Positions 17,060 through 51,965 of a stretch of 64,000 nt of DNA are shown piece by piece. The stretch comes from Chrysomallon squamiferum (lineage: Eukaryota; Animalia; Mollusca): positions 16,988,001 to 17,052,000 of the forward strand of contig CM022670.1 of NCBI GenBank assembly GCA_012295275.1, read 5' to 3'. Each line of letters starts with the position of its first letter. Position 1 is the stretch's first letter. The notes below the pieces were generated by a model, which had not been told where the DNA came from, made no database searches, and was given only the letters and a program-made list of their open reading frames with translations. Made by a program: the position numbers and the translations under genes.

Positions 17060-17186
17060 CTTCAGGACTTACCTATCAGATTGAAAATGGCTGCCAGTTA
17101 AAGACAGTAGGTGACCGCAGTCATTAACTGAAAAAATAATTAGGAAAAACATGGATATATAGAGTGATCAGCACTATGCAGTAAGT
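17060..17186. promoter_or_regulatory. Putative promoter / first-exon region of the giant gene, possibly bidirectional
   Basis: YY1-like AAAATGGCTGCC at 17084-17095. Plus-strand ATGCA|GTAAGT at 17176-17186 splices in frame to exon 2. A minus-strand perfect donor AG|GTAAGT lies at 17074-17067. Confidence 0.4.
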
Positions 17187-17389
17187 GTCAGAAGTTTGTT
17201 GACATTGTATATTATATGTGTCCATCTTCTCAGCGTTAAAGGGATTAAAATAAAATTACTTATCTTTCTAATATTTCATTAACTTATTGTGATTAAAACG
17301 AATTAATTTGCATTTAAAACCAATTGTACTGTTCTATTTCTTAAATTCTGAATGATAGTAATTTGATCTGATAAAGTATGAACATTTTA

Positions 17390-17436
<47 letters not shown>

Positions 17437-17769
17437 AAAAAGTCCTAACAAGACTTAGCCTTTGTCCTGTAACTTGTAACTAAATTGGGTTATTTTATAC
17501 CGACTATATTATTATACCAGTGACATTTTTGTGTGCATATATGTGTGGTGCCAGTTTTTAGAAGTATCCATCTATTTAAGATTTAGATTTCAGTCTGATA
17601 TTTGATTATTCTTTTTTATATATATATATATAGGAGCTATATTTATAATATAAAGACATCAGATGGCACACAGGCGTATCTGTATCAGAGAGGCTTTTTA
17701 AGATTAAGCTTAAGTGACCATATCTCTCTGTGTTATTGTACAAAATGAGAATATATATATATAATATAC

Positions 17770-17802
<33 letters not shown>

Positions 17803-17997
17803 TGTGTTTGTGTGTGTGATGAAACATCTTTAACCTTTGAGACCATTTCATGTTCATTATTTATGCATGTACCTTTTCATAAGTTATTAATAATTTGTTC
17901 TGTTTATTTACTTATTTATTTATTTTCTTCGTTTTGATTTGTTGTTTTGTTTTAAAAATCAAATCACCATCCAACCAAATACTGTAAATTAGCAAAA

Positions 17998-18079
<82 letters not shown>

Positions 18080-21000
18080 AAATATAATTGTAACTGTTAT
18101 GCATATCTAAACATTAATACGTTTGGCGTTAAGCGTTAGTCTATGAAAGTAAATTTTAAAGTACTTTTAAATATTCCAAGGCAGATTCTTCAGTAAGTTA
18201 TGCCTTTTGTCTAAATGAAGCTGAAAATGTCTGTTTCATGGAAAACATTATGTCCAGCGCTCATTAAAGTTTTGAGGATCTCTCCAAATTGTGGGATCCG
18301 ATATATGATACTTTTGCTACAAGGTTAATCTTTTTTTTTTTTTTTTTTAAATATTTTAAAATTAATTAATTAACTATTGTTACTATTTTCATTTCATTTA
18401 TTATTATAGTTGTTGTTGTTGTTGTTGTTGTTATCGTAGATTTGCCAAGGACTATGATACTAACAACGTAGGCCAGTATGTTTTCTCTTCGTCGCCAAAG
18501 CTTCCAAGGGAGAAAACTCCGGACATACTTATCAAGTTCCAGGCGATTAGTACCGAACAACCGTCCATTGTGAGTAAAACTTTTGATCTCAACTCAAGAA
18601 GCACACTCGCAGAAGTGAGACGAAAAATCCATTCGACATTCGCTTCATATTTCGAGAAAGGTTTTATTTTTCTGCATAAGAACAGCGAGGTTCGTCGATC
18701 ACAGGAAAGAAATATAAGCGTCTTCGACATTCTGCCAAAAGTACCTGAACGAGACTTGAATCCTTCATTCGTATTTCGAGATGTTCAATACAAACAGGTT
18801 AATAATAATAATAATAATCGTAATATGGGATAATGTTTTGTGTAGTTAATTTTTAAATGTTTATTAATCAGTCACTGTGACTCAGGGATTGGTGTCAGTG
18901 ACAGTGATTTTTATTCTTTTAATTTTTAAAGTGTTTTTAATTTATTATTAATAATTATTATTATTATTATTTTTTTTTTTCTTATTATTATTTGTTTATT
19001 TTTATATTTATTTTTTTAAAGATTCCATTTGAAAAAGATGGCCGCCGTTTCTGGTCTAGATGTATTGGATTGGTTTATCTGTTTGAAGACAGTGGGCTCA
19101 GGCAATGGTCACCGGAAGACCTGAATGCCGCCTTAAACGGAGAAGTAACAGATGCCTTCTCGTTTATTCCATTTGCTGTTAACAGTTACTTTCCAGACAA
19201 TTCAGGTATATTTCATAGAAAACATTTCTAATTGTATCAGAAGAATGTTATTACAAATTGAGGATCCCTTATCCAAAAGTACAGCAGAAATAGTGATATC
19301 TTACAGTTTTCGGATTGCTTTTGCAAACACAAAATTTATATTTACATAAAAGATATTATTAAAAAACATCCTGTGGACTATTTCTGTTAGCTGTATAAGA
19401 AATATAAATGGAATTCCTTTTTTAAGACATGGATCCTCTTACCAGGCCACCACCTTTTATTACAAAATCTGATACAGTTTCAGTCCCAATCATTTCATAT
19501 AAAGGATTCCAAATCAGTATTATTATTATTATTCTTATCGTTCAGTTTTTACTATATATATAAATAAATATTTCTTTTTTTTTATTTCTACATTTGTTCA
19601 TGACTAAACCAATCAATAAAATGTGTTTATTTTTATCTCTGTTTTTTACTTTTTTTAAAAGCACAATCACTATTTTCTTTTGATGCACCATTATCATATA
19701 TTTTTAATAGTTTGTTTTCAACATCACAAACATTTTGTAAACTGTTCATGACTAATCAGAAATAGTAATGATAACAAAAGTATCTTTGATGTAATATATT
19801 TTTAAATTTAATTTCATGGCAAATTACCAAACTAAATGACAACAAGAAGGAAGAATTGTTGATTTTACAAGTTGACAACTGAATCTCTATAATCTTTTTA
19901 TATCTGCACATAAAAAAAAACCCATGAAATACTCTGCTGACAAGTGATAGACTTACACTGCAAGATTACCAGGATTTCTTACCTGAAGATATGTTATGTG
20001 CTCATCATATCGGTTTTAAAATATATGTTATATTGTAAAACTTATAATTACTTATTTCAGCATTTACTAATTTTATCAACAGTTAGTGAGAGGTAGATAT
20101 TAATTTATGACAAGCACAAAAACTGTTAATAGATCATTTTGTAGGCACATCTGAAAAGTTATTTCCAGACTTGAATCTATGCATTAAATTTGAAATATTG
20201 ACCAAATAACATAAAAGATAATTTGAATCATCAGTTTTTTATCTAAACATAAATATTCTTTGACTAATTATAAATAAATATAAAAAATTAAATTGAAAGT
20301 ATAAAATAACATTTTAAATGATTAAATAACATCAGAAATTAAATAACAATAATAAAAAAAACTACAAAATAAATAAACTAATTCACTTAAATTTTAAATT
20401 ATTATTATCTGAAGTGTGAGGTCATTTCAAATCAGAAAAATCTAGTTATTTTGATAATTTTTTAATTGCCACTGATTATAAAACACTTGAACTGCTGGGA
20501 TATAATATTTTACAAACTGTTTTAAAGGTACATTGTATAGCTGAAATTATTTGACAACAACAACAACAACAATAATAAGAGAGCCTATAAAATATGTTGA
20601 AAGTAAACCAGGTTTGAACAAATATATATTATTTGTTTGGAACATGACAGAACAATAATTTGTGATTTAAAACTTCAAACAAGATAAAATCATACATTTC
20701 TCCAAAACTTATGACTGTTTCGTTAACAAACATGATAAAAAGGTTTTATCCCATGGTACACAGGTTTCATTAAGTAAAGAGTTGAAACTTATGTCAATAT
20801 GTTAACAGTAAAAAACTGAAAGATTGAAGCCACAGTGTTTTATATACTTCATCACCAAAATTCTTCGATTATTCAGCCATGGTAATTGGTCTGCCTTCTT
20901 CTCAATTTCTAGACTTGTTTTCCTATATTTGTTTGGTTTCTGAAGTAATGAATTTATTTATAAATTATCCACTGTCAAATTAAAGTTAAAATTAACTTAT

Positions 21001-21120
21001 TTATGTGTTATAAAGCTCTATATTTTATACAATTGTTATTTACAACTTCCATTTTACTGAAGTGTGTGTGTATGTATCCATTTTCATGTGTATATGTATA
21101 TATGCATTTGTATATGGGCA

Positions 21121-21151
<31 letters not shown>

Positions 21152-24100
21152 ACATGTGCATAGGTATGTGTGTGCGTGAGAAGTTAAAAGAATGTGGCAT
21201 TAGATCACTGGTAGATCACACTCTAGAAACAATTGTTCAGTTGACCTGTACTCCTTCCTACATTTATTTTTCAGTATAACTAGATCTCATTGAATAACAA
21301 AGGTTGTTCTGTAAAAGGTCTCTATTTGTTAACAGGTAACACTACAGAACAGTGTATTTATTTCACCACTAAAATACCATTATAACACTAGACATGACAC
21401 ACCTAATATATTAAAATTAATTCTTAAATAAATATTTTTTTTATTTATTTAGTTAGTTGGTTAAAATTAGGCTTTCCTTTTTAGCTGCTATTTGTATCTC
21501 CATCTTGGTTTCTATGAAAATTATATATTTTTTATTTAGGTGAATATTTTCATGTCAATCTTGAAGTGAATCATATGCTAAAATTACAAAGATACATTGA
21601 TAGACAGATATTATATTTAAAATCATACCTTTTTTTAAAAAAATGAATCAAGTCAATTTTAACGAACAAACATAATTAACAACAAACAAACTGGCTGGAT
21701 TTGTCTGTTTATTTTTTTACCTGCTGCATTTAATTTTTCTTCACCATCTGGTGAGAGAATTTTTTTTTATAAAGATTGGCACTAAATGATAAACATGTCA
21801 TGCCTGGGATCACTGGTTGACAGAAATCAAAAATGTGGTCAGCAACCAGGGCCTGGTACCTACTAATGGGTGTTTGATTGAGTATGGAGGGAGCTAAACC
21901 TTTTTCTTTTTCTTTAATATGTCATAATTATATGTTATAATCCACAAATTAATGGATTACCTTAAAACTGAAGAACTTTTGTTTCTCTTTTATCTTTTTC
22001 AGAATTGGAGTAGTTAAATTTTTTGACATAAAACTTTTATGATGAATTAATTAAACTTTTATTTAAACTTTAATAAATATAGTCCATTAATTCTAAAATT
22101 ATTGGGAGTTTGGTAGATATTCCAGCTTCACAATGTTAAAAAAATGTTATAGAAAGAAAGGTAGCTGGAGAACTGTTCTAGCATTTTAGTAAGCACAGAT
22201 GTCTTACCCTTTTTCATTTAACAGTTAAATTGTAACATACTTCACATATCATGTAATTTAGTTCTGTTTAATTTTATTCTGTAAAGCTGTGTAAATTCTG
22301 TTCCAGTACCAGTATTTCTAATATTTCTTAATAGTGTCAGTTTTTATATTTGTTTTAATGTCTAACATGAATTTTCATTAGATGTTCCAGTAGATCAGTT
22401 GAACTGTGCAGCTTCTCTGGGAGATACTGCAATTCTTCGTGATATTCTACACAAACTTCCAAATGAGGCAGATGCTCGTACGCTGAGAGATTACCGACAG
22501 GCCACACCTCTACACTATGCTGCACATTCAGGTCAGCTGGACATCTGTGAATTGTTGATTGGTCAGTTTGGACGATCTCTGATTTACATGAAAGATATGA
22601 ATAAGCGCACACCACTGCACAGTGCTCTTAATTTTAACAAACTGGATGTGGTTGTTTACCTTTTACAACTCAATCCTGCTTTGGACTGTCTGGATGTACA
22701 TGGACTCAGCTGTAGACAAATTCTTTACACTCTGAGTAATAAATCTACATTGTATATTTTACCTAGACTTGATCCTGGTCTTCTTGATGAAACCTTTGTC
22801 TTACATTTCACCTGCTACACAATTCAGTTAAAAATGAAAAAATTAGCAAAAATCTACTGTCAGCATCTCGTTCCTTTTGAGACTTCATTTTACAGATTTC
22901 TTCTTCATTTGGCAGCAGAATTAGGTGATGAAGAAATCATCAAGATTCTGTTAAAAGAAAATATGTCTGAACAGAAGTCAACAGATGATAATAAAGCTGT
23001 CGTATCAGGTCATGATCGAGGGATCAAAGATCCTGATGGACATCTGCCTTTCCATTATGCTTGCCAGCATGGACATGCCAATATTGTTCCATTACTTTAC
23101 TTTGAAAGTATGAGCAATGATGATTTTGTCAAGGGCATTCATTTGGCAGTGTCATGGAAGAGATATGAAGTTCTGAAGCTATTGCCAACTTTGAGAGAAA
23201 CCTTTCAGATCACAAATACAACAAAAGAATTGCTGATTAAAGAAGGAGAATCAGATTTTTCAAATCTTGCAAGGTATCATATTCCTTGTTTGAAAAATGA
23301 AAAACATTTGCTCTATAGATTTCTTTCACAAGCAGCATATCATGGTGATACAGAAATGATGAAATGGTTACTTGACCAAGGAGTTGAAATTGATCTGAAA
23401 GATTTCATGGGCAGAACAGCATTGCACGAAGCTGTCCAGTCAAATCATGATGAATCTGTAAAGATGCTGCTGGAGAAAGGAGCTAATCCAAATATAGGTG
23501 ACTGGCAAAAGTCCACACCACTGCATTATGCATGTTATTTAGGTCATCAGAAAACTGTCATGTTATTACTGAAGTGTGACAATATCAATCCAGCACTTCA
23601 AGATTCAAGTGGAAGGACTCCTGTTATGGTAGCAGCAAGAAGGAAACATGATAAACTAATGGACTATCTTATTCAAAACCATTTGGAACAAATGAATCCT
23701 AAAGCAGCTGATGTCACTGGTCACACCTTGCTATACTATATTCCACTTTTACATGAGAAAATAGCAGAATCACTAATAAAAAGGATTTCAACAATCTCGG
23801 AACAGCCCATTATTAAGTGCTAAACAAGAGAAAAGCTCTCAAGTGGTCAATCTTACAGAAATTTGGTCAGACTGGTCTCAGATCAGTCCTGACATCCCTT
23901 GTCCAGTGACTAGAAAACCAAAAAAGAATTCTATTACTGCTACACTTAAGAAGTGTACAGTATGTAGCAAGACTTGGACAGAATTTGGGAACCGACAGAG
24001 GTAAATGACCTTTTTATTTAATTTATTTATTTGGTGTTTAATTCATATTTAAATAGACTTTAATTAACCAGTACAAATTGTAACTGAATATATTTTGTTT

Positions 24101-27074
24101 TTTCTTGTTTCTTATACATATAAATGATAATTACTCTCTATATATTTCATATTTTATCTTATAAAGAAAGACTTACACGTGACATTAAATTTGAAGTTAC
24201 TAATGATTGTCCCAGTGGTTTTGTACACCACTCACCTCTACCTGTCACAGTTCTAGAAAATATATCTATATTTTATATTTCCAAGCTAATATTTTATATT
24301 TCAGGAACGTCCATTATTGTCGAGTTGGAAATGAAGAAGGTAAATTGGTTATGCTGAGTAAAGAAAATAATATTGTTACATGCCAGATCATAACACAACC
24401 TTTTCAGAGGTTTTCTTCAGTTCAGATCAGTCGTGACACTCCTTGTCCAGCGATTAGAAAACCAAAAAAGAATTCTATTACTGCTACACTTAAGAAGTGT
24501 AGAGTATGTAGCAAGACTTGGACAGAATTAGGGAACCGACAGAGGTAAATTACCTTTCTATTTAATTTATTTATTTGGTGATTAATTCATATTTAAACAG
24601 ACTGATTAACCAGTATAAACTGTAACTTACATTAAAAAAAAAAAAAAAAATTTCTTATTTGCCACATATATAAATAAATGATAATTACATATCTTATTAT
24701 CTTATAAAGAAAGCATTACACCATTCACATCTATCTGTCATAGTTCTGGAAAGCATATTTATATTTTATATTTCCAAGCTAATTAGACAAATTTTGTATT
24801 TCAGGAAAGTCCATTACTGTCGAGTTGGAAATGAAAAAGGTAAATTGGTTACGTTGAGTAAAGAAAATAATGTTTCTATATCCCACATCATAACACAACC
24901 TTTTCAGAGATTTTCTTCAGTTCAAAGTGATGATGTGTCATTGCTTCGTCAGCTAATAATGCATGACAGACCAGAATTAATTCACAAAATTGCTGTCTAC
25001 CTACCAGGTATTTTTCAGAAAGAATTCAAATCTGCAGCTATTGTTGCTGCTAAATACTGGTCTGAGAAATCTCTCATTTCACTGGATAAGTGTCATAATT
25101 TTACACAAGAACAACTTGATATTCTCCTGCAGGTGGCCATTTTAAATGAGACATTTAGTGACAAAGATAAAACAAAACAAGCTAATACTGTGAAGCAGCT
25201 GATTGAAATGGGTGCATCACCAAACTATATACCAACAGATCTTAAAAAGTACAAAGATTTATCTTTTTCTGAAAAAGAAAAACATCTTTTGGTCCATTCA
25301 GCTTTAGAATTAGCTGTTTTGAAAGAAAATAAAAGTTTAGTTGATGTTCTGTTAAGCAATAAGGCCTCCACTTTAATATGTTTTGCACTGCACTTAGCTG
25401 TTTGGAAAGGAAATACAGAAATACTGAGTACTGTGATAAGTCACTGGAAATCACAGTCACTGGAAAGTACAGGTCCTGCTGATGAGCACACTTGTATGTG
25501 TGCTAAAGGAGTGTTTCAGGCTGCAGTCAACAGTCCACACAAAAGTGAAGAATTGTTTTCTGTCATCATAAGAATTTGTCCAAAACTGCTGCAGTCAAAG
25601 TCATTGTTGACACAGGAGATGGTCAGTGAAACCAGACAACTTCTAAATGCTGCAGACTCACCTGTTAACACATTTACCTTCAGACATGAATCAGTGCTTC
25701 CTCTAACACACTTTATACAGCATATTTCACAGTATGAAGAGAGTATGGAAGCTGTTGTCTGTCAACTTATTGAAACTGGGGTTCATCTAGCGGATACTCA
25801 GATTACCAAGCACACTTCTATACACTGTGTTTGTCAAGCTTTTATCAGTGCTGTACAAAACAAGCTGTGGAAAGTAGTAATCATGCTTCTTCGCCACGGA
25901 GGATCAGTGATTTGGAACTGTTTGCTTTCAGCAAATACACCTTGTCACAAACATGTCTATATTCAGTACCAGAAAGTGCCACTGCCAATTTTGTCAGCAT
26001 TCTGGCAATCATTCTTCCAATCTGCACCACTGGAAATACAAATATATTTCTTTCAAGAAGGGCATACGTTTTTGAAAACAGTTGACACTGGGACTTAGAG
26101 AAAATCATTATGGAAATCAGCACAACACATGAAAGAAAAACTACTGCATTAGATATTCTGCAACAAATAGCCTGGCATCATTTAACAAAGTCAGGTACAA
26201 AAATGCAACATTTAATGGCCTCTAAATTTCTTTATATTTTTCCCAGATTGTTTCCCAAATATATACTAATGATACACCAGTATTTGTGTACCTGGATCAT
26301 GACTCAAAACAGATCTGAAAGAGCCAAAATCTTTAAATCAAATTATAATTTAAGAGCAAGAAGAGCTTGTCAGATTCTTCAGAAAAGCACAAAGGAAGCT
26401 AGTTTGATAACAACTCTAAGCAAACTGACAACCACAGATTTAGAATACATTAAAAAAATGGAAATTTCCATTCTACAGTTTGCTTCTGCCATTGGAGACT
26501 ATGATTTGGCAGAATCATGTTTGTCTGCTGTTGATGCACTACCAGTAGACTGCAGAGGAAAAGATGATGTCACTCCACTCTCCATAGCTGCTGCAGCTGG
26601 GAACATCAAGATGGTTGATCTGTTTTTACAACATGGCCATACTCTAGAACAACAGACTTTAAATGCTGCATGTTGTGGAAAACAATTTTTAAGTAAGTAA
26701 TCAACTGTTAACATGTCAGTCTTTGAAATTAAATTGTCCATTCTCTGGGAACAAATACTTGCTTCCTTTATTTGTGAGTTCTACCAGAATGTGGAAACAA
26801 GTTGCTCCCAGCTGCAAGTTAGAAAGCCTGCCAGTTTGCTTAGGTTCTCTATCACATACACCAGAAACCTATTGTTTACAGTACATATAAATAAAAGATA
26901 ATTGTAGCCAATAATAATGCTTTCCAAATTTGGTAAATATAAATTTAAATATTACAGGTACAGAAGATTTTGTCTGACAAAGAGTATTACTGGCACATTT
27001 TATGAAAATGTTTTTTTTTTGAATCAAAAGTATTTCATTATTTTTATTAATTTGTTATTCCTAAACTTACCCAC

Positions 27075-27142
<68 letters not shown>

Positions 27143-27783
27143 TATTTTTTATTTTTTTGTCTGTTTATTTGCTTGCTTGCTTACTTGTTTATTATTTTGA
27201 TCTTCTATTTAAGTACACTGAAGAAATTTATGTTGCTTTAAAATTAGAAATCTAGTGTAAACACTATTTTTTCTTATCTAGAGATGCCATATATAAAAAG
27301 TGTTACTCCAACACAAGAGGAAAAAGGTAAAACTCACAATTCTGAAAAAGCTTGAATCAAGGTATTTGCAAATCAGGGTCCAGATTCAATCAAATGTTCC
27401 AAATTTAGCTGTTTACTATGGTTCATACTGAGTTAAGCTATGTGATTGTGAATTAATGTTCTCCTGATCGGCTCTGGACATATGAAGCTATTTAAAGGCT
27501 AGTAGCTATTAAAATGTTTAGCATACACTGGAATTAGAATGGTTTAGAAACCAGTCAGATTTGGTGAGTTTTTTTAATCTGGGCTCAGATCTAGCTAGAA
27601 ACACTGATATCTGTTTTAATGTCAACACATCAAGTTCTGCCTTTATCTAGTATACCATTCAAAAATTAATTTTTGCATTGGAAGAAAAAAAATTAACTTT
27701 GTCTTTTTCTTCCTATTTTAATAGTAAGTAAATAATTGTTATTGTTATTATTATTATCATTATTGTTATTGTTGTTCTTCTCA

Positions 27784-27815
<32 letters not shown>

Positions 27816-28324
27816 GTTATTTTCATTACTCTTACTGTTAATTATTAAAATTATTATTATTAAATTACAGAAATATTCATGAAATCATCTCAGATATTTC
27901 AGGATTAATACATAAGCTAAAACATTTTGATAATTATATTTATTAATTTATTTTGAAAATATATATATTTTTAAATTTAGCTCCAAAGTAAGTTTTTGGG
28001 CAGACCATAGAGACAATGGAACTGTATTTAAAATGGCAGTAACCAAAACACACTGGCAAATAGTGGAGTACTTATTGAAAAATGAACTATATCCAATACA
28101 CCTGAAGTCACATCCAAAGTAAGATTCTTCCAAATTTAATCTTTCATTTTGACTTTGCTAATCATTATAAACATCTGTTACAAAGATTATCCCAGACTGA
28201 GAAGGATAAATAAATACTATTATAACTGGATAGTGTATTAATAATTCAGATTATGTAAATTATTTTTAACCATAAATCTGGTTTAAGAAATGTAACTAGA
28301 ATAATCGCTCCATAATGACCTCTC

Positions 28325-28358
<34 letters not shown>

Positions 28359-34300: not shown

Positions 34301-37300
34301 CAATTGAAAAGGCAACAAGGATGACAGGTGATATGAAAAAGTTGTTAGATGTTGGTTACATGCTCTATGATAGCTGGAGGATTGCTACAAATCTGGGTGT
34401 GAATCTGATGTTTGATTCTTCTGTATTCATACAAAAATCTGCCCTTCAAGTTGTAGCATATATTGTTTTGGTGACACTTCAGGATATATCAACTATTTTC
34501 ACTGGTGATAATGAATCTGTTTATAAATCATTTTTGAAAGCTTTCAGCAGTTTGGGAACTCTTTCAGTAGGTTTTTGTCCAGAATTTGAAATAGAAATTA
34601 CTGAAAAGGATGAAATGGCTGATGTAACTTCTGTAACAGAAAGTGATCTACATATAAACTTTAAATCATCACTGCTGGTTTGTGAGAAGCCATATCAACC
34701 AATAGCAGATACACTTAGACGTGCTTTATGCAAATCATTTGAAAGTCAAGCTCCTCAAGAGGTGACTCAGTGTCTGTCTCAAGTGTTGAAGATAAACCTG
34801 TCAAAAAATTCAGTAAAAGTTCCAGTGTTTCACAGCCTAAGAAATAACACTGAAACCCTGCATGCTGTTTCAACATCCATCAGAAACTTTGAACAGGCTG
34901 TGCAGTACATTTCAAACAACAAAGACAATGCCAGAAAACGTCTTCAGTCAGAATTGCAAAATGTTGAGTTTAAAGAAGTTGGTTCACCTACCACAACTGC
35001 TACATTTAAAGAAGGTGTTTTAGAATGTGCAGTTTTGAATGACACTACTGCTGAGCAATTGCAGAAAGACATTGTTGCTGCCCTTGAAAACACAGATATG
35101 TCTTCAGAGGTACCAAGATCTTTTTCTAAAGGATCAAATTTAAGACTGGTACGACACAAGGAAGCCATCAGGTTTGTTGTGTACATTTATTATGAAATTA
35201 TATATATTTATTGTCAGTATACATTTATTATGAAATTTATTTATTTATTTATTTTTATTTTATTTATTTATTAGATGTTTTTTTTTTTGTTATTTTGTTT
35301 TTCTTTGTGTTTTTTGTTTTTTGTTTTTTTGTTATCAGAACAGTAAGATGTAGAAAACTGACAAAATACATTTGGGATTCTAGAAAGCAGACAATAATAA
35401 CACATCTATGCATTTGCTAATCTCAGGCCTTGTTTAAATCTAAATCCTAGTTATATTTTTCTGAAAAATAAAATGGAAACTGTAATTATTTTCAAGTATA
35501 AAAATAAAAAGTATAATGCAATAATTAAATTTCAAAGTGGCAATACCTGAATGGAATAAACAATTTCTGTCACACATAATAAAAATCTGTGGTTCTGTAC
35601 TTTGTTTATAATTATTTCTTCTTTCAGTTATGTTTTTGAAAATGCCACAGACTTGTTATTTGATTATGTGGAACTTGGACAGACAGACAATACTGAAATT
35701 GAACTGGATAATGGAGCTGATATTAACAAGAGAGGAAAGGTGTGTTTCTGCTCTATCCTGATTAACTAGAATTTTAACACTAAAATCATGTCTTTAATAA
35801 ACATAAACTTTTATTCTACTGGCTATTTTTTACTCTCAAATGAGTGTTTTGCCAAATAGTTGATCAGAAACACAGTTGTATGAAAAAGGATGAGAAGTTG
35901 CTTTTAATTAACTAAACACTCATCAGAAACACATTAACATAATTTGTGTGACTAGCATCCAGCTCCACCATGTTCTCAGACAGTGATATGATTCTTTTTT
36001 TAGAACTCTGATTAACTTTTTACACAGACTCTCAGTTTGAAAAAGTAAAAATAGACACATACACAGATAGATACATAGATCACAAACTTTTTATACAGAC
36101 TGGCAGTTTAAACAAATAAAATCAGTGATGTGTCATACACACAATACACATATATACACAAACTTGCACACATATACATAGTAGACATAAACAAACACAA
36201 AACATACATACCAACACAAACACAGTCACACACAAACATACAGCTATTTTGTTTTCTTATTACATACATGTTTTTATCATTTCAGAATGGTACAACCCCA
36301 TTCATGCGATCATGTCAGCTGAGAAATTTTGTCATACAGAAACTATTACTGAGTCATGGTGCCAGTGTAAATATAGAGGATGATGTAAGAATAATCATGA
36401 TTTACTAGTGATGACATCGAATCACACTGTGTACACTTCTCCAGAGTCGAGATGTGTTGTAAAGGCTGATTGATAAACTTTTTTTAAAGTTCAGAAAGAC
36501 TATTTTTTATTACATATATAGTTTTTGTTTTGTTTTTTTAAGGAATGTAGTAGTCTTTTTAGTAATTACCTAATCTTGATTTTGGCTTTATTTTCCCTTC
36601 ACAGACAGATAACATAAAATATTAAAAATGTAAAAAAAATATCAGATAACAGATAGATGGATAGATGAGAGTTGTTGAAGACAAAATAATATATCAAACA
36701 ATAAAAAATTAAGAGAATGAAAAATGAAAAAAAAAATTGTTATTTATATATAACAGCTTCATCGGACTCCACTGCATTATATAGCTGCCTATGGTGACAT
36801 GGAAAGTCTGAGACTACTTCTAACAAACAAAGCCAAACTGAATGCCAGAGACTGTGTAAGTCTGATATTCTTATCTGTATCATAACACACACACATGTAC
36901 ACACACACAAAGACATATACAAATAAATACAAAAACAAAAACACAGCTTGTACCTAAATACATAAACACACATGCACACACAGATGATGTATATATATAT
37001 AATATAATAGCAAAATAAAATAGAAATTTAAGCTGGCTGATTTATTGTTATGTCTTGCTTGGTTTTAAATAACTATTGAAAATTACAAAGAATCTATATG
37101 TTGTCTTGACTTTCAGTATGGACGAACACCACTTCACTATGCAGTTAATAAATTCAAATGGGAAGCAGCTGATCTTCTTACCTTCTGTGGAGCTGACGGA
37201 ACAATTCTAGACAATGTAATTGTCTTCTTTGTTTCATTTCTTATGTATTTGTAACACCCACATTATTTATTTTTACTACTTGTTTTTATCTCACTATTCT

Positions 37301-39678
37301 TTCATTTCTCACTGGTGGGAAGAGGATTATTTTATTTTTTTATTACTTTTTTGTTTGTTTGATTCTTTCATTTCTCAGTCATCACAAATGCATTATTTTG
37401 TTTGTTTTTTAATAATTCTGAACTTTAATTATCACTACCTTAATATTTATAGAATGTATTTTTAACATTTCAGATCTCAGAAAAAAATATTTTTATGCCA
37501 TAATAGTCTTTTTTTTTCTTTTTTTTTAAGATATTTATTTTGTTTTGTTTGGAAAGAGGACTTTGAATTCTTCTGATGAGAGAAATATTTGTTTGAATTT
37601 AATTTTAATCATGACTTTGCATGTATGTAATTGAGTGCAGACTTTCAGTATAATATGCCACATAAAAATTAACTAATCAGTGAAATTAATTCTGTTGGAA
37701 AAACAGAGTCCAGCTTCTAGCTGCAGGAATCCTAAACTGTGCAGTCTGATGAAAGAATCCAAGGTTATTGCACTTGGCGTACAAAATGGGTAATTTTGTT
37801 TTATGTGTTGACTGACAGACAGACAGACAGATTTAGATATACATATGGATAGATACAAATATAGATATATATATATGTCTTGTTGTATGTTTATGTTTGT
37901 GTGTGTGTGCTTGTGTGTGTATATGTGTATATATATATAGAGAGAGAGAGATGCAACCAAATATATCTGAATATTTTAATATTTTAATATTATAACAACA
38001 AACAAACAAAAAATAGAAAAAGAAAGAAACAAAAACAAACAATAATCAATGAAATTTTGAGATAAAATAATTGTTTGTCACTACTATTAATGTCTTTTAT
38101 CTTTAGAAACTACATGAAAGATTTCAAGGTAAAGTATGAAAAATACTCATTTCATCTGATTAGATGAGTTCAGTTTCATTCTAGTGCAGCCAGTACATTT
38201 TCAACAAAATATGCTGTATCCTACAATAAGTTTTGAAATTTAAATAGGACATGAATTTTTTTTTTTTTAATATTATAAATTGATAAATATGCCATTTGAC
38301 CTGAAACCTATCTGCATCATTTGGTAAACTGCAAAAATTTCTTCATCCAGAATAGAAACAACAAATTTGCTTACTTCAGTAGTTTATACTTATCTTTATT
38401 AGTTTATACTTGTGCTTATTAGTTTATACTTATGTTTATACTTACATTAATAGTTCACACTTAGGTTTTTCAGTTTATGTTTATGTTGATTAGTTCATAT
38501 TTATGTTTATTAGTTCATACTAATTGTTTATTAGTAAATGTTGATTAATTTATACTTGCATTTATTAGTTCACAGTTATGTTTATTAGTTTATAATTATG
38601 TTTATTAGTTTATATTTATATTGATTAGTTCATATTTATGTCGATTATTTCATACTTATGTTTATTAGTTCATACTAACTGTTTATTAGTAAATGTTGAT
38701 TAATTTATACTTGTATTTATTAGTTTACACTTATGTTTATTGGTTTATACTTACATTTATTATTTATACTTCTATATTATACTTATCTTCATTAGCATAT
38801 ACTTATGTTTATTAGTTTATACTTATCTTTATTAGTATATCTTTATTGGTTTATACTTTTCTTTATTAGTTTATCTTTATTGGTTTATACTTATCTTTAT
38901 TAGTATATTCTTATGTTTATTAGTTTATACTTATGTTTATTAGTATGTATTTATGTTCATTAGTATATACTTAGATTCATCAGTTTATACTTATGTTTAT
39001 TAATTTATACTAAATGTTAATTAGTTTATATTTATGTTTTTAGCTACTTACACATAGAGTTTGTAACTCTTGAAGGAAACATGAACTATGACCTTCATCA
39101 GATTGGACTAACAATAAGAACTCCGAGTTCGCTGGGAAGTAAGCCAGTTGGTATGGTGTGGAGACGAATTCCGCCTGAATACAGCAGAACTGACATGCTT
39201 CCAGTTGACAGAGAACTCATCATGAGTGACGTTTTTGAGTTTCAAATCTTCACAACTGATGTGTCAGATGACTTCATCCTGGAAATACCAGTTTACTCCA
39301 AACCAGATAACTCTGAAGAGGTTTACATGAAAACAGACAGAAGCGAACGCATTGGAAAGCTTAAGGATATTAAAAAAGTTAAAAAGGTTATTTATTTATT
39401 CATTTATTTATTTATTTTTATGTATAATTATTATCTGCAATTAATTGCTCTAATTTTACTTTTTCTCTCACATCATTTTTCTTTTACATTTTGTGGGTTT
39501 TTATGTTGTTTTTTGGGGGGTTTTATGGAAAAAAACCCATTTATTTATTTATTTATTTATTTATTTATTATTATTTATTGTAGTAGTGTTATTTCTGTTG
39601 TTGTTTTTGAGTTTGTTGCTAATCCTACTGCTACTATGATTACTACTACTACTAGTGCAGTTATTATTACTGATGATG

Positions 39679-39712
<34 letters not shown>

Positions 39713-42700
39713 CACTACTGCTATTATTATCATTACTATTGTTGTTCATGTTATTAATATGTTTTCTGTTTAAAGGGTCAGTGGGTGTGCTGTGCTAAAA
39801 CCAATCCTTGTTCAATGAATTCCTTTGTTTTGGTGACATCACCAATAACAGAAAAGTTTCCAGTCACAGCAGCTGGTGGAACTTTCTCATCAAACATGGC
39901 AACAGTGGACATTTTTGTCAAACCAGAAACATTTAAGAAACGTGGACATCTTAACTTTGAGGTAGACATGTTTCATAGCTAACAACAATTTTGAAAGAAA
40001 AGAAATTGCATCTATAAACATTATAAATCTAGAAAAATTAACCAAACAAAGTTTAAGTGTTTTACCTTTGGTTAAAATTGCTATAACAATGCACAAGAAA
40101 TTTTATTATTATGGATCTATCTACCCATTCAGTTATTATTGCATGTCTAAAATATCAACTTTGTAACATTATGTTTTATTTTAATTTCCCTTTTTTCTGT
40201 TGTTTTTGTTTACTTTTTTAAAATTTAAATCTGTACAGTCTATAATAAATAAGATTTAGAAATGTTAAAACAAATCATGATCCATAGCTGTGAAATTATC
40301 ATTATCTTTTACTTTTTCCTGTAGGTAATTCCAAAACCACCACTTGAAGAAGACATATTTGACAACGTGCTCTCGTTATCCAATTTTTTTGATATCAGCC
40401 ATTCTGCTGGAGAACAGCCAAACAAAGAGATGATTATGACAGTTCCGCTGCCTGATAACTTCAAAGCAAAAGGTGACCTGTATGTGATGGCTTGCCATGA
40501 GCAAGTTGAAAGTGAAAATGAAGAAGATTTTTGGGAAATCCTTCATAAAAATCCTCCCATTGATAATGATACAGTTAGTGTGCACATGCAGCATTTCTCA
40601 GAGTGAGTATCATAAAGACTACATACATTATTGAAAAAATACTTTAAAATAAATATCAGTGAAGATATTGTATTTCTTTTCTTTAAAAATTAACTTTTAT
40701 TTCAATATTGAAACTATAATTTTCTTTGAACTTTTTAAATTTTAAACAAAAATGTTTTGTGTTTTATTACATTATTCATCAGTCATATAATTTTTTGGTA
40801 TAAAAATATCCATTCCTATATGAATCTCATCAGTTAAAAACAAAATACTTGTTTTAAAATAATGAATATGTAAACCATACATTTGGAAAATATATATTTC
40901 TTATGAAACAAGATTTTCTGTTTTCCTTTTTCTCCCTACTTTATTATGTATATAACTTTTATTACTATTTTCTTTATCTAGATTCAATTTAATAGAATAT
41001 AAAAAATTAGTCATAGACTACTCAAAATCAGAAATTGAGCAGAAGAAAGATGAAGAAGAAATAAAAAAAGAAGTCATCAAGTTAAATTCTGAGCTGCTGG
41101 ACAAAGCCAAACGTCGTGAGTGCAGTGTTGTGTTCATGGCCATGTTGAAGAATCTTTCTGACACCAATAATGGAGAAGTAGTTGTAGAATGCACCAGAAG
41201 CAACAAGAAAAACGAACGTCTTCAACACTGGAAATGTGAAGGTTACAAAGACCAGAAGCCAAGCTATACGACAGAATTCATCATACTTCCAAAACAAGAG
41301 TTTAAAATCAACATAGTTGGAAGTGCTCTGAAAGAAAAGCAAACATTGAGTAAATTACAGTATCATCCTAAAAGACAAAACGTGCTCAAGCTGCCTGTCA
41401 TTGTGGATGATAACAAAGATGGTTATGTGGATATTGCAAAGAAGGAGGAGGAGGATGTTCAGAAGGAGTTTGAGGACAATCCAAATTATAAAACTTTGGC
41501 ACAGATATTGCTACATTTTATCCAGATACACAAAAGTGAAGACAATGAAAATGTTGAAGAGGAAAAGACATCTGAAGGTAAAACAAACTGCATAATTAAA
41601 GTGGTGTAGGATTGTCTATTTTTGTTTCCTTTGGTGCATTATGAAGACACATGTTATTAAGTTGAATTCAGATATATTTAAAAAAATATGTTTTGATAAT
41701 CAGAAGCCTATCTTTAATCAGCTTCAAGCACTCTCTACACTTCAATACATCTCTCCCCAAACACTGGACACCGTCTTTTAGAAAACTTTATCATAAAATC
41801 AGCTAAAAAATACCAGTCAAGTTTAATAGAAAATGATCAGTGTCACCCCCTTCAAGTGGAACCCAGGGCACATGCCATAACTGTCATACTTAATTATGAT
41901 GCTGTTGACCATTTACAGGCAAATACTAGAATAAAGTTTGATGTTTGTGTGTGTGCATATTTGCATTTTTACTTAGAGTTCCTTGTTTAAATTTAAATAT
42001 TTGTAGTCTTCCTCTGTAACTAAGAAAACTTTGAAGTTATCAATACACTTCTTTGTTTTCTACAAGCAGCAAATATAATACATACAGTCTAAAACCCTTT
42101 CTAAATGTAACAAATTAATTTCTTCTGTCTGTCTGTCTGCCTGTCTCTTTCACAGAGTTGTTCTCTTGTTTTGAAAGGGTTTACAAATATCTGTCTGTCT
42201 GTCTGTCTGACTGATTCTTTCACAGAGTTGTTCTCTCATTTTGAAAGGGTTTACAAATATCTGTATGTCTGTCTCTCTGCCTGACCCTCTCTCTGATTCT
42301 TTCACAAAGTTGTTCTCTTGTTTTGAAAGGGTTTACAAATAGCTGTATGTCTGTCTGTTTGTCTGTCTAATTCTCTCTGATTCTTTAATAGTATTGTTCA
42401 CTTGTTTTGAAAGGGTTTACAAATATTTGTCTGTCTGCCTGTCTGTCTGTCTGACTGATTCTTTCACAGAGTTGTTCTCTTGTTTTGAAAGGGTTTACAA
42501 ATATCTGTATGTCTGTCTCTCTGCCTGACCCTCTCTCTGATTCTTTCACAAAGTTGTTCTCTTGTTTTAAAAGGGTTCACAAATGAAAAACTGCTGAAGG
42601 ATTTGGCTCAAGACCTGGGTTCTGAATGGCAGCGTGTTGCAGTACAGTTGGGATTTTCAGAAATATCTCTGAAAATGAAGGGAGGAAGGAAGAAAATCAG

Positions 42701-45700
42701 AGATACAGAGTCAGTTAACATGTTGAACTACTCATTTGTATCAGTCAGCTTTTGATAACTAAAACAGATAATTTTGTGTTGTATTGTTAAATATTATTCT
42801 AACAGTTCTGACTATTTTAAATGCCACTTTAACAGTCGTTATATAAAATATTTGAAACTAAAAAGAATTAAAGTTTGCTTTAAAAAAGTGTAAGAATAAA
42901 CAATCAAATAATCAGTGTGTTGGTGTGGTCAGTTTGACATATTCATTTTATTTACAAGTTTGTACTGAGTTTTTATTCATTTCTGTACAGTTTGATTCTG
43001 CTGTTACCATTACTCCAGATCTTTGATTTTAAAGAAAATTATTTGATTTATTAAAATTTTCTTACAAGAACATTATCTTTAATACATGTTTTGTAATTTT
43101 TTAATTGCTGAATTTGCTGGAATTGTTATCCTTTGTTTGTACCATTACTCCAAATCTTCTGTTTTAAAGAAAATTATTTATTTTCACTAATTTTATTAAA
43201 GTTACAGCTTTAATGCAAAAACAACCTCTTTAATTTTCATTTCATTATTTTTGAATCAGTTGCTGAAATCTTGGAGAGACAGTCGATTACACAGAAATGA
43301 CCACGGAGTTCCAGAACTTCTTATAGCTCTTCAGAAAGGAGGAAGAACTGATTTAGTGCAGAAAATCATGAAAAGACTTGAAGAATGGTAAAACCTCAAA
43401 TTTTATAACTGCAAAAAAATATTAAAAAAGATAAATAAATTAATCAAATAAAAATAAATAAATAATATTATTTAATAATGCAATATTTCTAAAACTGTTT
43501 CAAACACTGTAGCTGAGAGTTATGGAATTGGCTTCCATTAATTGTAAATAATAATATAATACAGTATAATGAAAACTAATAATACTGTGTAATGAAAAAT
43601 AATAGTATTGCAAAATAAAAAATAATAGTACTGTGTAATGAAAAGGATTATAACATATTAGATATTTTTTCCTGTACAGAAATTATAAATTAGTTATTAA
43701 TGTTATTTAGGATTATTAAATGTTACATATTTGTTTCTGTCTGGAAATTATAAATAAGTTATTATTGTTATTTAGGATTATTAAATATTTCTTTCTGGTC
43801 TGAATAGAAATTATCAATTGGTTATTACTATCACTTAGAATAATTAAATATTAAATATTTCTTTCTGTTTAGAAGTTACAAATGAGTTATTAATGTTTGT
43901 TATTTAGGATTATTAAATATTAGATATTACTTTCTGTATAGAAATTCTAAATTACTTGTTAATGTTATTTAAAATGATTAAATATTAGATATTTCTTTCT
44001 GTATGGAAATTATGAATAAGTTATTATTATTATTTAGAATTATTAAATACTAGATATTTCTTTCTGTCTGAATGGAAATTATAAATTAGTTATTAATGTT
44101 ATTATTTAGGTTTGGAAAAAATAAAATGCAAGAAGACAGATTCTGCAGTTGGCTGAAAGTGACACTGAATGGAAGTTCAGCAACTAAAAAGGGTAAAACA
44201 TAAACATTAAAACAGTTATATACATGACAACTGACTTGCTAAATGAACATATTCTGATGTTCAGTACGTTTGTAGTGTAGTAATGCTGACAGTTTACTCA
44301 AACTTAACTGTAAAAAACATGCATTTTATGTGAAATGTACTTATATAAATTTATTCTTTTATTTTATATATTTTACTTTCTTTGAATTTTTTTTTTTTTT
44401 TTTTTGTTTCAGTCAGTTTATCTGCTAATTATCAATCCATTTGAAAAAATTCTTATCCTGCAACTAAACTGAAAAATATTTGTAATTGTCATTTGATACA
44501 TTTTTTTATTTTTATTTTTATTTTTTTATAATAACAGTAGTTAGTGACAGACGTTTCTTAACATGTCTGAATATAGCACACCCGTGAGAATGAATTTAGT
44601 TCAGACCTCCGTACATATTTGCTTGTGTTATTGTTCTCCCCTGTATGTGCTAACTGTACCCAGGTTTCTATTGCACCATCACTTTACTGCACCACTGTTT
44701 CTTTTAAGACTTCATTATTTACTAAGTGAGCTAGTAACATGGGTATAGTTGTTGTTTTCATTTAGAAGATGGTTTTAGCAATACACAGACTCACAAGGGA
44801 AATAGTTAAGTAGACATGTTAAAATTGTAAATTCTGATTTCATTTAAATTCCATAAATTGTCACTTTTAATAGGAAGACAGAAAATTCTTAAAACTGGTA
44901 TTCATAGGGATGACTGAAATATAAATGCCCCTGTTGACTTTCCTGTATTACATAGTTAGAGAAACTGAATAATTCTTTTTATTTTTGTCTCAGAACTTCC
45001 CAAGCCGATGTCTGATGAGTTTATTGCACAGCTTGTTGAAAAGACTGGTGTAATTTTTGACTTGGCGAAAGAACTGGATGTTTCCAAACCTGAACTGGAG
45101 CTCATTCTCATTGATCCCCTGTCCTCCACTCCTGAGAGCAAAATGATCAAGGTAGATTTATAATTTTACTGAATTTGTAACAAAAACATTTATTATCTAT
45201 ATTTTGCTGTAAATTTTATGTTTTAATTTCAGTTATTTATGACAAGCAGGGATAAACAGACATCAGATGACAGAGCTTTCCAAGTAGTTGTGGAGGCTTT
45301 GTCAAAATTTTACCTGGAGGAACCTAGGAACTGGATGTTACAAACAGCGCGGTCCTGGTATGTGGTTGTTTGTTGTTGGTTTTTTGTCATTTTTTGTAAA
45401 AATAGCTTTTTTATGAAAAGTTAAATTAAAGTTAACTATAAATTAATCTACTTGTATTTATTTTAAAATGATGTCACACACCAATATAAATTTTATGAGC
45501 AAACCAGTTATTGTTTCATTTCTCTAAAATACATCTATTTTTAAAAATTTCATGTATGTATGTACAAGATTTTATTTTATTATTTTTTTTAGGGAAAACA
45601 CTGTAGAAAAATCACATCATCCTTTTGTTCAAAATATTTCTGATTATTTGGATGAAGCAGAGCCTTATTTTATGCCAGGCCCAGGAGATGATGAAGCTTT

Positions 45701-45704
45701 ATAA
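17176..45704 (+). CDS. Giant ankyrin-repeat / ZU5-ZU5-UPA / tandem death-domain protein (~4,500 aa); reading frame interrupted in this assembly
   Basis: Exons: 17176-17180, 18440-18797, 19022-19205, 22382-24000, 24305-24544, 24805-26696, 27282-27326, 27981-28118, 28465-32636, 32789-35171, 35628-35739, 36286-36384, 36757-36855, 37117-37215, ~37707-37789, 39044-39386, 39776-39961, 40325-40602, 40982-41577, 42574-~42737, 43260-43387, 44110-44192, 44994-45151, 45233-45357, 45593-45704 (TAA). Splice phases join consistently; about 13.7 kb coding. Many TPLHxAA-type ankyrin repeats, an HFS motif and death-domain motifs. The six frameshifts and two stops all fall in the four large exons. Confidence 0.82.
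18440..19205 (+). CDS. Giant gene exons 2-3: N-terminal putative ubiquitin-like domain
   Basis: Open frame from the acceptor at 18440 (QFAKDYDT...TFDLNSRSTLAEVRRKI..GFIFLHKNSEVRRSQERNISVFDILPK). Phase-0 join to 19022-19205, phase-1 join to 22382. Confidence 0.7.
19254..19517 (-). mobile_element. Tigger/pogo-like MITE, copy 2 (intron of giant gene), opposite orientation
   Basis: 264 bp, TA-flanked. Ends are CAAATTGAGGATCCCTTATCCAAAA ... TTTCATATAAAGGATTCCAAATCAG. Internal GATATCTTACAGTTTTCGGAT is nearly the reverse complement of ATCTGAAAACTGTAAGATATC in copy 1. Confidence 0.7.
22382..26696 (+). CDS. Giant gene exons 4-6: ankyrin repeats with duplicated Cys/His motif
   Basis: ORFs 22399-23823, 24794-26098 and 26110-26700 carry ankyrin motifs (ATPLHYAAHSG, RTALHEAVQSN, STPLHYACYLG, VTPLSIAAAAG). 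Frame breaks at about 23780-23821 and about 26086-26096. Confidence 0.88.
23878..24923 (+). repeat. Intron-spanning tandem duplication (~500-545 bp unit)
   Basis: CCAAAAAAGAATTCTATTACTGCTACACTTAAGAAGTGT...GGGAACCGACAGAG|GTAAAT ends at both 24000 and 24544. TTTCAG|GAAnGTCCATTAyTGTCGAGTTGGAAATGAA starts at both 24305 and 24805. The two introns are similar to each other. Confidence 0.92.
28465..35171 (+). CDS. Giant gene exons 9-10: ankyrin array followed by an uncharacterised repeated domain
   Basis: ORFs 28454-28993, 29099-32119 (1006 aa, ankyrin motifs), 32184-32681, 32833-33957 and 34111-35274. One clear intron at 32637-32788. Confidence 0.85.
35628..37215 (+). CDS. Giant gene: C-terminal ankyrin block with one repeat per exon
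   Basis: Exon 35628-35739 is followed by three 99-nt phase-0 exons (NGTTPFMRSC.., LHRTPLHYIAAYG.., YGRTPLHYAVNK..). Confidence 0.88.
38380..39043. repeat. ~20-bp AT-rich minisatellite (TTATTAGTTTATACTTATGT-like) ending at a splice acceptor
   Basis: Many degenerate tandem copies are visible; the array ends at TTTTAG|C (39043/39044). Confidence 0.85.
39044..41577 (+). CDS. Giant gene: ZU5-like, ZU5 (HFS) and UPA-like module
   Basis: FPVTAAGGTFSS..VDIFVKPETF..VLSLSNFFDI..MIMTVPLP..LYVM..WEIL..VSVHMQHFS|EF fits the ZU5 pattern, with HFS at 40592-40600. It is preceded by a similar beta-rich unit (LIMSDVFEF..FILEIPV) and followed by a UPA-like segment (VVFMAM..VVVEC..EFKINIVG..LQYHPKRQN). Confidence 0.72.
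42125..42585. repeat. 70-84-bp minisatellite, 6 copies, each containing the death-domain exon acceptor
   Basis: GTTGTTCTCTTGTTTTGAAAG|GGTTTACAAAT-like units with the AG at 42177, 42247, 42329, 42413, 42491 and 42573. Confidence 0.9.
42574..45704 (+). CDS. Giant gene: two C-terminal death-fold domains
   Basis: DD1: LLKDLAQDLGSEWQRVAVQLGFS...LLKSWRD..GVPELLIALQKGGRTDLVQKI (classic death-domain pattern). DD2, more divergent: MSDEFIAQLVEK..FDLAKELDVSKPELELI..KMIKLF..AFQVVVEALSKF. Confidence 0.8.
43650..44109. repeat. ~60-bp AT-rich minisatellite ending at a splice acceptor
   Basis: Repeated GAAATTATAAATTAGTTATTAATGTTATTTAGGATTATTAAATATTAGATATTTCTTTCTGT-like units; the last TATTTAG|G is the real acceptor. 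Confidence 0.82.
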
Positions 45705-49954: not shown

Positions 49955-50252
49955 TCAGAGTCGAGTTCCTTCCTCCTGGTAACTTGGATTCACACGCCCA
50001 GCCACACCATTCATTTCTTCCTGCATAGAAGGATAAAGTTTTTTCAGTTGATGGTTTTCTCCTTTCTGCTCCATGATGGTGTCATAATCTTCTGGAATCG
50101 CTGAAATGTACGCTTCATCATTGGCTATTTCTTCGTCAGTGTCGGGTATGTTCGCAAATGTATTTCGGAAAAGGTGATTCAAAATACCAGCACCAATCGA
50201 ATCGCCCATAACATTTACTGCAGTTCGGAATCGGTCGCTGAAAATATTAATC

Positions 50253-50310
<58 letters not shown>

Positions 50311-50854
50311 TAACAGTAACAACAACAAAACTATTTTATTTATTTTATTAGTATCTGTATTTCATTTTTAAGTTTTTAATCTTCAAAGTTTTGTTTGAAG
50401 TAATTTTCATTATCATTTATATTTTATTTTATTTTATTTCATTAACTTAAATTACCTACATATTTTAGTCTATATATATATATATATTTTTTTTGGTATT
50501 AACATTTGAACTATGTAATTTTTGCCATAAAACACAACAAAATTTAATCTATTCACACTGATTATATACAGCTACTGCTACTACGGCTACTACTACTATT
50601 ATTACTACAACTATTGCTACTGTTACTACTGCTGCTATTACTGCTGCTACTGCTACTATAACTACTACTACTACCATTACTGCTAATAATAATAATAATA
50701 ATAATAATATACGAACAGGAACCAATCTATTGCCAGAATCAAGGTGACGTCATCAGTTGGAAGACCAACGGCAGTTAACACAATTACCATGGTGACCAGA
50801 CCCGCTTGCGGTACCCCAGCTGCTCCTATGGCGGCTGCAGTGGCAGTTATACTA

Positions 50855-50901
<47 letters not shown>

Positions 50902-51144
50902 TAATAATAATAATAACAACAAAAACAAACGCACAACGTTCGATAATGGGTTAATATTAATTAGATCGAATATTTCTGACTCTGTAAATTAAATGTTCAT
51001 ACAAATATATTATTGAATACATATACAATGAAGTTTTTTATTTATTTATTTATTTATTTACAATTAATTAGCCACCATTTTAGGACATTTTCGATTTAAA
51101 ACTCTTCAGGCTTGCTACAGTTCACTTACGGTTTTGAAATAAGG

Positions 51145-51223
<79 letters not shown>

Positions 51224-51874: not shown

Positions 51875-51950
<76 letters not shown>

Positions 51951-51965
51951 ACACACACACACACT

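Follow-up and report, generated by a model that had tools for sequence, protein, structure and literature searches.

A probably inactivated copy of a giant gastropod ankyrin gene with a ZU5-ZU5-UPA-death-domain tail in Chrysomallon squamiferum

The window, a 64,000-nucleotide stretch of the genome of the snail Chrysomallon squamiferum (GenBank assembly GCA_012295275.1, contig CM022670.1, positions 16,988,001 to 17,052,000), contains a giant plus-strand gene that raises two questions: what kind of protein does it encode, and is this copy still intact? The original prediction described a single gene for a PIDD-like protein. The reading preferred here, tentatively and with somewhat less than even confidence, is that the gene is a recently inactivated copy of a gastropod self-cleaving ankyrin scaffold of ~4,600 residues that carries a grafted tail and plays a PIDDosome-like role in cell death or inflammation.

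The gene model extends from the ATG at 17176 to the TAA at 45702-45704 and comprises 25 exons, 13,669 nucleotides or ~4,550 codons. AG/GT dinucleotides are present at all inner exon junctions, given a donor at 42709 for the first death-domain exon. A frameshift-aware alignment matches the model to residues 7-4590 of the 4,604-residue Haliotis asinina protein XP_067677725.1 (P0034) with 37% identity (1591 of 4336 positions), and the model aligns to residues 14-4276 of the 4,289-residue Patella caerulea protein KAK6188909.1 (P0004) with 30% identity. Gigantopelta aegis XP_041360010.1 (P0029) matches the 3' half, the last domain included, with 56% identity. All proteins of the relatives are annotation models; the family search gave 23 matches among 2,972 candidates, of which seven colinear relatives were kept and the weaker ankyrin-repeat matches dropped. 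The abalone and limpet proteins are colinear with the window model over their full length, so that relatives with the same domain order exist. The coordinates of the original prediction hold and, for the family as a whole, so do its overall domain order and its single gene. The consistent exon phases that it described do not hold, given eight frameshifts and two stops. The window, Gigantopelta, H. asinina, P. caerulea and Elysia marginata sequences, all of which end in ankyrin repeats and a ZU5 module, are termed type A.

The predicted ZU5-ZU5-UPA module and first death domain are supported by profile and fold. The C-terminal region aligns by profile to residues 933-1349 of ankyrin-1 with an E value of 0.011. 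Fold comparisons employed an AlphaFold model of residues 1735-2472 of the Gigantopelta protein, with a mean predicted local distance difference test (pLDDT) score of 66. This module matches ankyrin-B (4d8o) with a Foldseek E value of 4.1e-19 and a VIA Z score of 19.0 (root mean square deviation, RMSD, of 11.9 over 458 aligned residues). The Pfam ZU5 and UPA_2 profiles yield no match at an E value of 10 on the H. asinina or Gigantopelta proteins, whereas ankyrin-2 scores 139 and 182 bits; domain scans miss type A because these profiles do not score it. Death domain 1 exceeds the Pfam Death cut-off in both proteins (E value of 5.7e-9 in Gigantopelta). Its best structural match is the PIDD death domain (2of5_H), with a Z score of 14.1, RMSD of 2.1 over 96 residues and 27% sequence identity, and the match to FADD (Z score of 13.1) is tied with it within one unit. 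The last domain, a second death domain in the original prediction, comprises six helices modelled at pLDDT 30-68. It aligns to death domain 1 with an hhalign probability of 0.5% and, searched within the Gigantopelta module model, has no Pfam or death-domain fold match; as modelled, it is possibly a diverged death domain.

The second ZU5 domain (ZU5b) ends in His-Phe-Ser in the window, Gigantopelta and Haliotis, three of the five type-A sequences, and ankyrin-2 lacks the motif. In the model it occupies (residues 268-270) the loop leading into the last ZU5b strand (residues 270-276). According to the accessible text of PMC9162469, PIDD1 autoprocessing needs His-Phe-Ser, and the FIIND motif of NLRP1 and CARD8 is located on a loop that immediately precedes the long last ZU5 strand (accessible part of PMC3210808). 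DAR, the spectrin-binding motif of ankyrins (PMC9356056, available portion), is absent from the first ZU5 of all four type-A relatives and present in ankyrin-2. From the placement of His-Phe-Ser and the absence of the spectrin motif, we infer a scaffold that would release a UPA-death-domain fragment. In intact relatives the second ZU5 would cleave itself at His-Phe-Ser, and the freed fragment would bring in an adaptor with a death domain, for example CRADD, FADD or a RIP kinase, and seed a PIDDosome-like complex for cell death or inflammation. Sensing, or anchoring the protein in place, may fall to the ankyrin trunk together with the uncatalogued middle region. An innate-immune or cell-death role, as proposed in the original prediction, is possible. 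CRADD and caspase-2 are present in gastropods, as stated in the accessible text of PMC11463336.

Type-A proteins are neither PIDD1 nor canonical ankyrins. They share with PIDD1 the C-terminal ZU5-ZU5-UPA-death-domain order seen in the Gigantopelta model, the similar death domain, and a His-Phe-Ser that closes the second ZU5, the site that yields PIDD1-CC (PMC9162469, as far as accessible). They are ~5 times longer than PIDD1, with a trunk of ~3,700 ankyrin and uncatalogued residues and an extra six-helix end domain, and possess one of the two cleavage motifs, whereas His-Phe-Ser ends both ZU5 domains of PIDD1. The leucine-rich repeats of PIDD1 were not detected on the H. asinina protein at an E value of 10 or on the P. 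caerulea protein at 0.1; the N-terminal region is ankyrin. Canonical ankyrins (ankyrin-R, -B and -G) likewise have ankyrin repeats followed by ZU5-ZU5-UPA and a death domain, and they give the best profile and fold matches. In type A, however, four repeats adjoin the module rather than 24 contiguous ones, the others lying beyond a non-ankyrin region of ~1,000 residues. The modules are 14-21% identical, type A has His-Phe-Ser and not DAR, and no long disordered exon is seen. NLRP1 and CARD8, in which FIIND corresponds to ZU5-UPA, carry a self-cleavage motif at the corresponding ZU5 position, followed by UPA and a death-fold domain, and the type-A module matches 7crw and 7jn7 with Z scores of ~10. 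Type A differs in having two ZU5 domains, a death domain instead of CARD, His-Phe-Ser instead of Ser-Phe-Ser and no NACHT or leucine-rich repeats. The cytoplasmic ZU5-UPA-death-domain supramodule of UNC5 receptors is also similar (3g5b, Z score of 9.1), but type A has two ZU5 domains and the giant trunk, and no transmembrane segment or Ig/TSP ectodomain occurs among its Pfam matches. DTHD1 and UNC5CL share the ZU5-UPA-death-domain module. The PIDD-like character originally proposed thus stands in part: the ZU5-ZU5-UPA-death-domain fold and His-Phe-Ser, which the original prediction did not mention, favor it, but the module is as much ankyrin-like as PIDD1-like.

A second set of paralogues, termed type B, comprises three abalone proteins and proteins of Patella vulgata, Sinanodonta, Potamilus and Argopecten, among them the uncharacterised XP_067679114.1, XP_046374758.2, KAL3868185.1, KAK3584823.1 and XP_069128217.1. 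These share the N-terminal domain, ankyrin trunk, cysteine motif and uncatalogued middle region with type A and end differently, in a ~300-residue tail with a CxxC motif that has no match to the ZU5 or death-domain exons. The tail is itself uncatalogued, and its CxxC is conserved near the C-terminus (P0033, P0005, P0030, P0008, P0037, P0039, P0040, P0038, P0041 and P0042). The type-B abalone proteins also contain a clear duplication of ~350 residues. H. asinina carries both types, probably on one chromosome. In a quick unrooted tree inferred from the shared region, the type-A sequences lie to one side of a branch with a Shimodaira-Hasegawa approximate likelihood ratio test (SH-aLRT) support of 93. 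Because snail and bivalve paralogues share the trunk and differ in their ending, the death-domain tail looks like a gastropod graft: the trunk, found in bivalves and snails, is older, and one paralogue likely received the ankyrin-ZU5-ZU5-UPA-death-domain tail within the gastropods. Two UPA exons in one further assembly suggest tandem copies. A search with the N-terminal exon among proteins of 210-2,000 residues matched none of 121 candidates, a weak search given that the relatives are longer. The C-terminal module search, among proteins of up to 1,290 residues, found only four exon-sized pieces among 7,994 scored, and therefore did not reach short relatives such as PIDD-like proteins.

The trunk begins with a well-conserved N-terminal domain that, judged from its sequence, is possibly ubiquitin-like. 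The Atlas leads reach only 0.78-0.81, those to ATG8/APG12 and Rad60-SLD 0.78-0.80, and neither Pfam nor Protein Data Bank (PDB) profiles gave a match to beta-grasp or ubiquitin-like folds. Matches of this domain to MutH (E values of 1.7-2.3) were taken as chance. The predicted ankyrin repeats are confirmed by Pfam: the first large exon shows them clearly, they continue in more degenerate form as far as 32100, and four small exons carry them as well. The predicted cysteine (zinc) motif, CxxC...HxC, follows the first ankyrin block in seven of the nine relatives examined; in one of the two without it, the scan covered just 60 residues. A local duplication that produced the exon at 24305-24544 would add a second CxxC...HxC in frame. 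The middle region, ~1,000 residues long, was modelled through the homologue P0032 (765 residues, mean pLDDT 78) and consists of recurring strand-helix-hairpin units, the repeat nature of which is weak in sequence (best unit-to-unit profile probability 36%). It has no PDB sequence match at an E value of 10 and no Foldseek match at 0.001, and none of 48,161 VIA comparisons reaches a Z score of at least 8, the best (6.7) being HECT C-lobes and zincin-like domains; these searches took all 765 residues of the model at once, so that similarity of one domain may have escaped them, and they do not establish a new fold. A search with this region returned 12 proteins among 1.84 billion representatives, and the seven with a named source are all from molluscs. 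Two candidate identities were set aside: Med14/Med1, for which the Atlas leads (0.79-0.82) are below the trust level, and a zincin metalloprotease, the fold resemblance having a Z score of only 5-6 and HExxH being absent from the middle region of all eight proteins. Two chance HExxH motifs occur in the ankyrin trunk.

The second question concerns the integrity of the window copy, which does not form one open frame across its exons. Relative to the H. asinina protein it contains eight frameshifts (~23818, ~26085, the ~27291-27326 junction, ~32087, ~32835, ~33952, ~34110 and ~42670) and two in-frame stops (28991 and 32181), some of which may be assembly errors; three more stops within one shifted stretch bring the total to 13 events. 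The first break would terminate the protein after ~660 codons. Five public runs contain 16-30% of the sampled words of 28454-35274, and contigs from four of the five were compared with the window across 28440-35180. They differ from it at ~6% of positions, mostly fixed (406 differences in run X1, 238 of them transitions), and therefore derive from a close relative or another copy. The intron 32637-32788 is spliced (32636 to 32789) in all three RNA runs, and the end of the 27981-28118 exon is joined to 28465 in contigs of all three, with loose ends. Run X5 spans the intron without a splice joint and is probably DNA. This ~94%-alike copy has frame-restoring lengths at all four frameshifts in the compared stretch: one base less at 32086 and one more at 32834 (four runs each), 7 fewer (X5) or 67 fewer (X1, X2) near 33952, and 22 more near 34110 (X5 and X3, with loose ends in X1). 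The segment 33928-34007 is length-variable, the related-copy contigs lacking 7 or 67 bases depending on the run.

At both stops the bridging contigs are gapless, and three other window genes used as controls for assembly error (3.8 kb together) have no exonic stop. The two stops and the 22-base deletion are not readily explained as single-base noise and point to a recently dead copy. Among the coding differences listed, 11 of 39 are synonymous, close to the neutral expectation of 24.5% (P = 0.35) and below the 52% expected at a nonsynonymous-to-synonymous rate ratio (dN/dS) of 0.3 (P = 0.002). Two stops imply ~0.3% drift since the death of the gene (95% range 0.04-1.2%). What fits best is a fast-evolving gene, inactivated recently in this lineage or haplotype; real inactivation is likely, and the window copy is probably a pseudogene or null allele. 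An old pseudogene was considered, and polarised amino-acid changes gave no sign of it. The TGA at 32181 corresponds to Cys in Gigantopelta; its translation as selenocysteine was rejected because that would leave the TAA and the frameshifts unexplained.

Several observations weigh against the recently inactivated, self-cleaving scaffold, and they are taken here with the alternatives they favor. The closest solved structures of the module, and its top fold matches, are the ZU5-ZU5-UPA-death-domain regions of ankyrins, which are structural adaptors. His-Phe-Ser is absent from Patella and Elysia, two of the five type-A sequences, and from the first ZU5. The tree derives from an unrooted quick search, with support below 95 and long branches flagged. 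The family could accordingly consist of non-cleaving, ankyrin-like structural adaptors for membrane or cytoskeletal complexes, with a death domain that packs against ZU5-UPA or engages non-apoptotic partners, and with His-Phe-Ser as a relic. Canonical ankyrin has the same order of ankyrin repeats, ZU5-ZU5-UPA and death domain (PMC5135030, accessible text), and the type-B paralogues do without a death domain. Such an adaptor would not be expected to lack the DAR spectrin motif, to be missed by Pfam profiles that match ankyrin-2 strongly, or to keep His-Phe-Ser across abalone, Gigantopelta and the window, where identity is 37-56%; duplication and fast change, with 11 of 39 differences synonymous (P = 0.002 if dN/dS were 0.3), fit conflict genes. 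This alternative is somewhat doubtful.

Other observations concern the inactivation. Among the controls, one clear +1 frameshift interrupts ~1,600 nucleotides of the SLC1 gene, two frames matching consecutive parts of the Pfam profile, and one phase mismatch occurs in ~930 nucleotides of the lectin gene, whereas the frame of the LDL-receptor-family gene is open across 1,273 nucleotides. Single-base noise at the rate of these one or two errors in 3.8 kb could therefore explain four to seven of the eight frameshifts, and several breaks lie in short base runs. The 40 of 609 difference rows listed cover no letters at stops 28991 and 32181. Amino-acid changes are not piled on the window branch: of 28, the outgroups are matched by the window in 8 and by the contigs in 4, with 16 undecided. 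A close copy is transcribed and spliced. An intact gene, with assembly error behind every one of the ten breaks, is nevertheless unlikely: the two stops stand without gaps against the bridging contigs and are accompanied by a 22-base deletion and a 7-base insertion, the control genes are free of exonic stops, a 1,041-codon open frame indicates that the assembly is not raw, and the differences from the contigs are transition-rich, as in real divergence.

It is highly improbable that the model wrongly merges neighboring genes, two or more of them, one encoding the trunk and another the ankyrin-ZU5-death-domain part. In favor of such a merger, no RNA contig spans the gene and only two junctions were observed in RNA (in 28440-35180), the Elysia chlorotica model covers the middle only, the type-B paralogues have the trunk without the type-A tail, and the Gigantopelta model, a further point against the preferred reading, begins mid-gene and covers the 3' half only. 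Against it, trunk and tail occur in one protein in the annotations of three genera (P0034, P0004 and P0002), and the Gigantopelta model joins the middle region to the tail and starts within the single 4.2-kb exon of the window.

The features of the giant gene and of its lectin neighbor are listed in Table 1.

Table 1 Features of the giant gene and the adjacent lectin gene, in window coordinates.
Feature	Coordinates	Strand	Evidence and remarks
Lectin neighbor, F5/8-type C (fucolectin-like) + C-type lectin	11756..14725	-	6 exons
Candidate first coding exon	17176..17180	+	ATG, phase 2; GT donor and phase fit next exon; start predicted
N-terminal ~170-residue domain, exons 18440-18797 and 19022-19205	18440..19205	+	41-56% identity with type A and with type B
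Ankyrin block 1 and first half of CxxC...HxC motif	22382..24000	+	Pfam Ank_2 E 1e-54; frameshift ~23800-23820
Hybrid 240-nt exon, from ~500-550-bp tandem duplication	24305..24544	+	Direct repeats 88-94% identity; phases fit
Degenerate ankyrin-like exon	24805..26692	+	Pfam Ank E 1e-5 to 1e-3; frameshift near 26090
Small exons 27282-27326 and 27981-28118	27282..28118	+	Mutual junction out of phase: lesion or missed micro-exon
4.2-kb exon: ankyrin and degenerate ankyrin-like repeats, then start of uncatalogued region	28465..32636	+	Pfam; stop 28991, frameshift 32086, stop 32181
2.4-kb exon, uncatalogued alpha/beta region	32789..35171	+	Frameshifts near 32835, 33952, 34110
Four ankyrin-repeat exons 35628-35739, 36286-36384, 36757-36855, 37117-37215 and linker exon 37707-37789	35628..37789	+	52-76% identity to P0001; Pfam Ank on homologue
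ZU5a and ZU5b, exons 39044-39386, 39776-39961, 40325-40602	39044..40602	+	Profile to ankyrin-1; model matches 4d8o
His-Phe-Ser, candidate self-cleavage site, end of ZU5b	40592..40600	+	Sequence; loop before last ZU5b strand in model
UPA domain exon	40982..41577	+	Profile and fold; pLDDT partly <50
Death domain 1, exons 42574-42709 and 43260-43387	42574..43387	+	Pfam Death E 5.7e-9 on P0029; frameshift ~42665-42690
Linker exon 44110-44192 and six-helix C-terminal domain, exons 44994-45151, 45233-45357, 45593-45704	44110..45704	+	76-77% identity to P0029, also in P0034; stop 45702-45704

No clear micro-exon could be placed in the model within 27326-27981 or 35171-35628, and ~25 residues of the relatives are without a clear exon in the latter interval. 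The linker exon, three residues shorter than in the relatives, seems to have lost its acceptor at 37690-37710. The intron preceding the first death-domain exon contains, at 42120-42584, five copies of a 70-82-bp unit that repeats the splice acceptor of that exon.

The AT-rich window contains, from left to right, the 3' end of an LDL-receptor-family gene, the minus-strand lectin gene, the giant gene and a minus-strand SLC1 transporter gene. The chimeric lectin that was predicted to lie head-to-head with the giant gene is borne out by Pfam (F5_F8_type_C_2, E value of 6.7e-10; Lectin_C, 1.3e-4) and by its divergent minus-strand ATG at 14725, the two ATGs being 2.45 kb apart. Its first exon is signal-peptide-like, and the phase mismatch falls between its last two exons. 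A functional tie between the two genes may exist, their adjacency being the basis for it. The LDL-receptor-family 3' end (538-6679, plus strand) encodes YWTD repeats, EGF, a transmembrane segment and an NPxY tail. The SLC1 (sodium:dicarboxylate symporter) gene (49955-58466) has ~8 exons, and its +1 frameshift, near 52150 in a conserved exon, is likely an assembly error.

The architecture was not recognized in the original prediction as that of a described protein, and no paper describing the family was found, also by accession or locus tag; most subscription journals and supplements were outside the search, and gene tables of genome papers may list it. The accessible parts of PMC8195603, PMC5135030, PMC11874512 and PMC9334734 do not describe it. 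The protein is a variant of the ZU5-UPA-death-domain scaffold with an uncatalogued region, and belongs to a mollusc family, as yet undescribed, whose single ancient trunk comes with two alternative tails, the gastropod tail being a death-domain module invisible to Pfam. The middle region of ~1,000 residues contributes a confident model with no close solved fold. With the window copy probably dead, the value of the finding rests in the intact abalone and limpet orthologues. One survey found no PIDD in lophotrochozoans (PMC11463336, accessible text), whereas PIDD homologues are reported in clams and squid (accessible parts of PMC7836458 and PMC9389742). Because molluscs have CRADD and caspase-2 while their PIDD is disputed, a ZU5-UPA-death-domain protein bearing His-Phe-Ser is a concrete candidate activator. 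In its fullest form, type A would be a gastropod-built PIDD analogue with a giant ankyrin sensor, a new repeated alpha/beta fold and a grafted self-cleaving tail, the fragment of which activates CRADD and caspase-2; this proposal is quite improbable. If it is true, the blindness of Pfam to type A could explain why PIDD was missing from a survey of lophotrochozoans that did recover CRADD and caspase-2.

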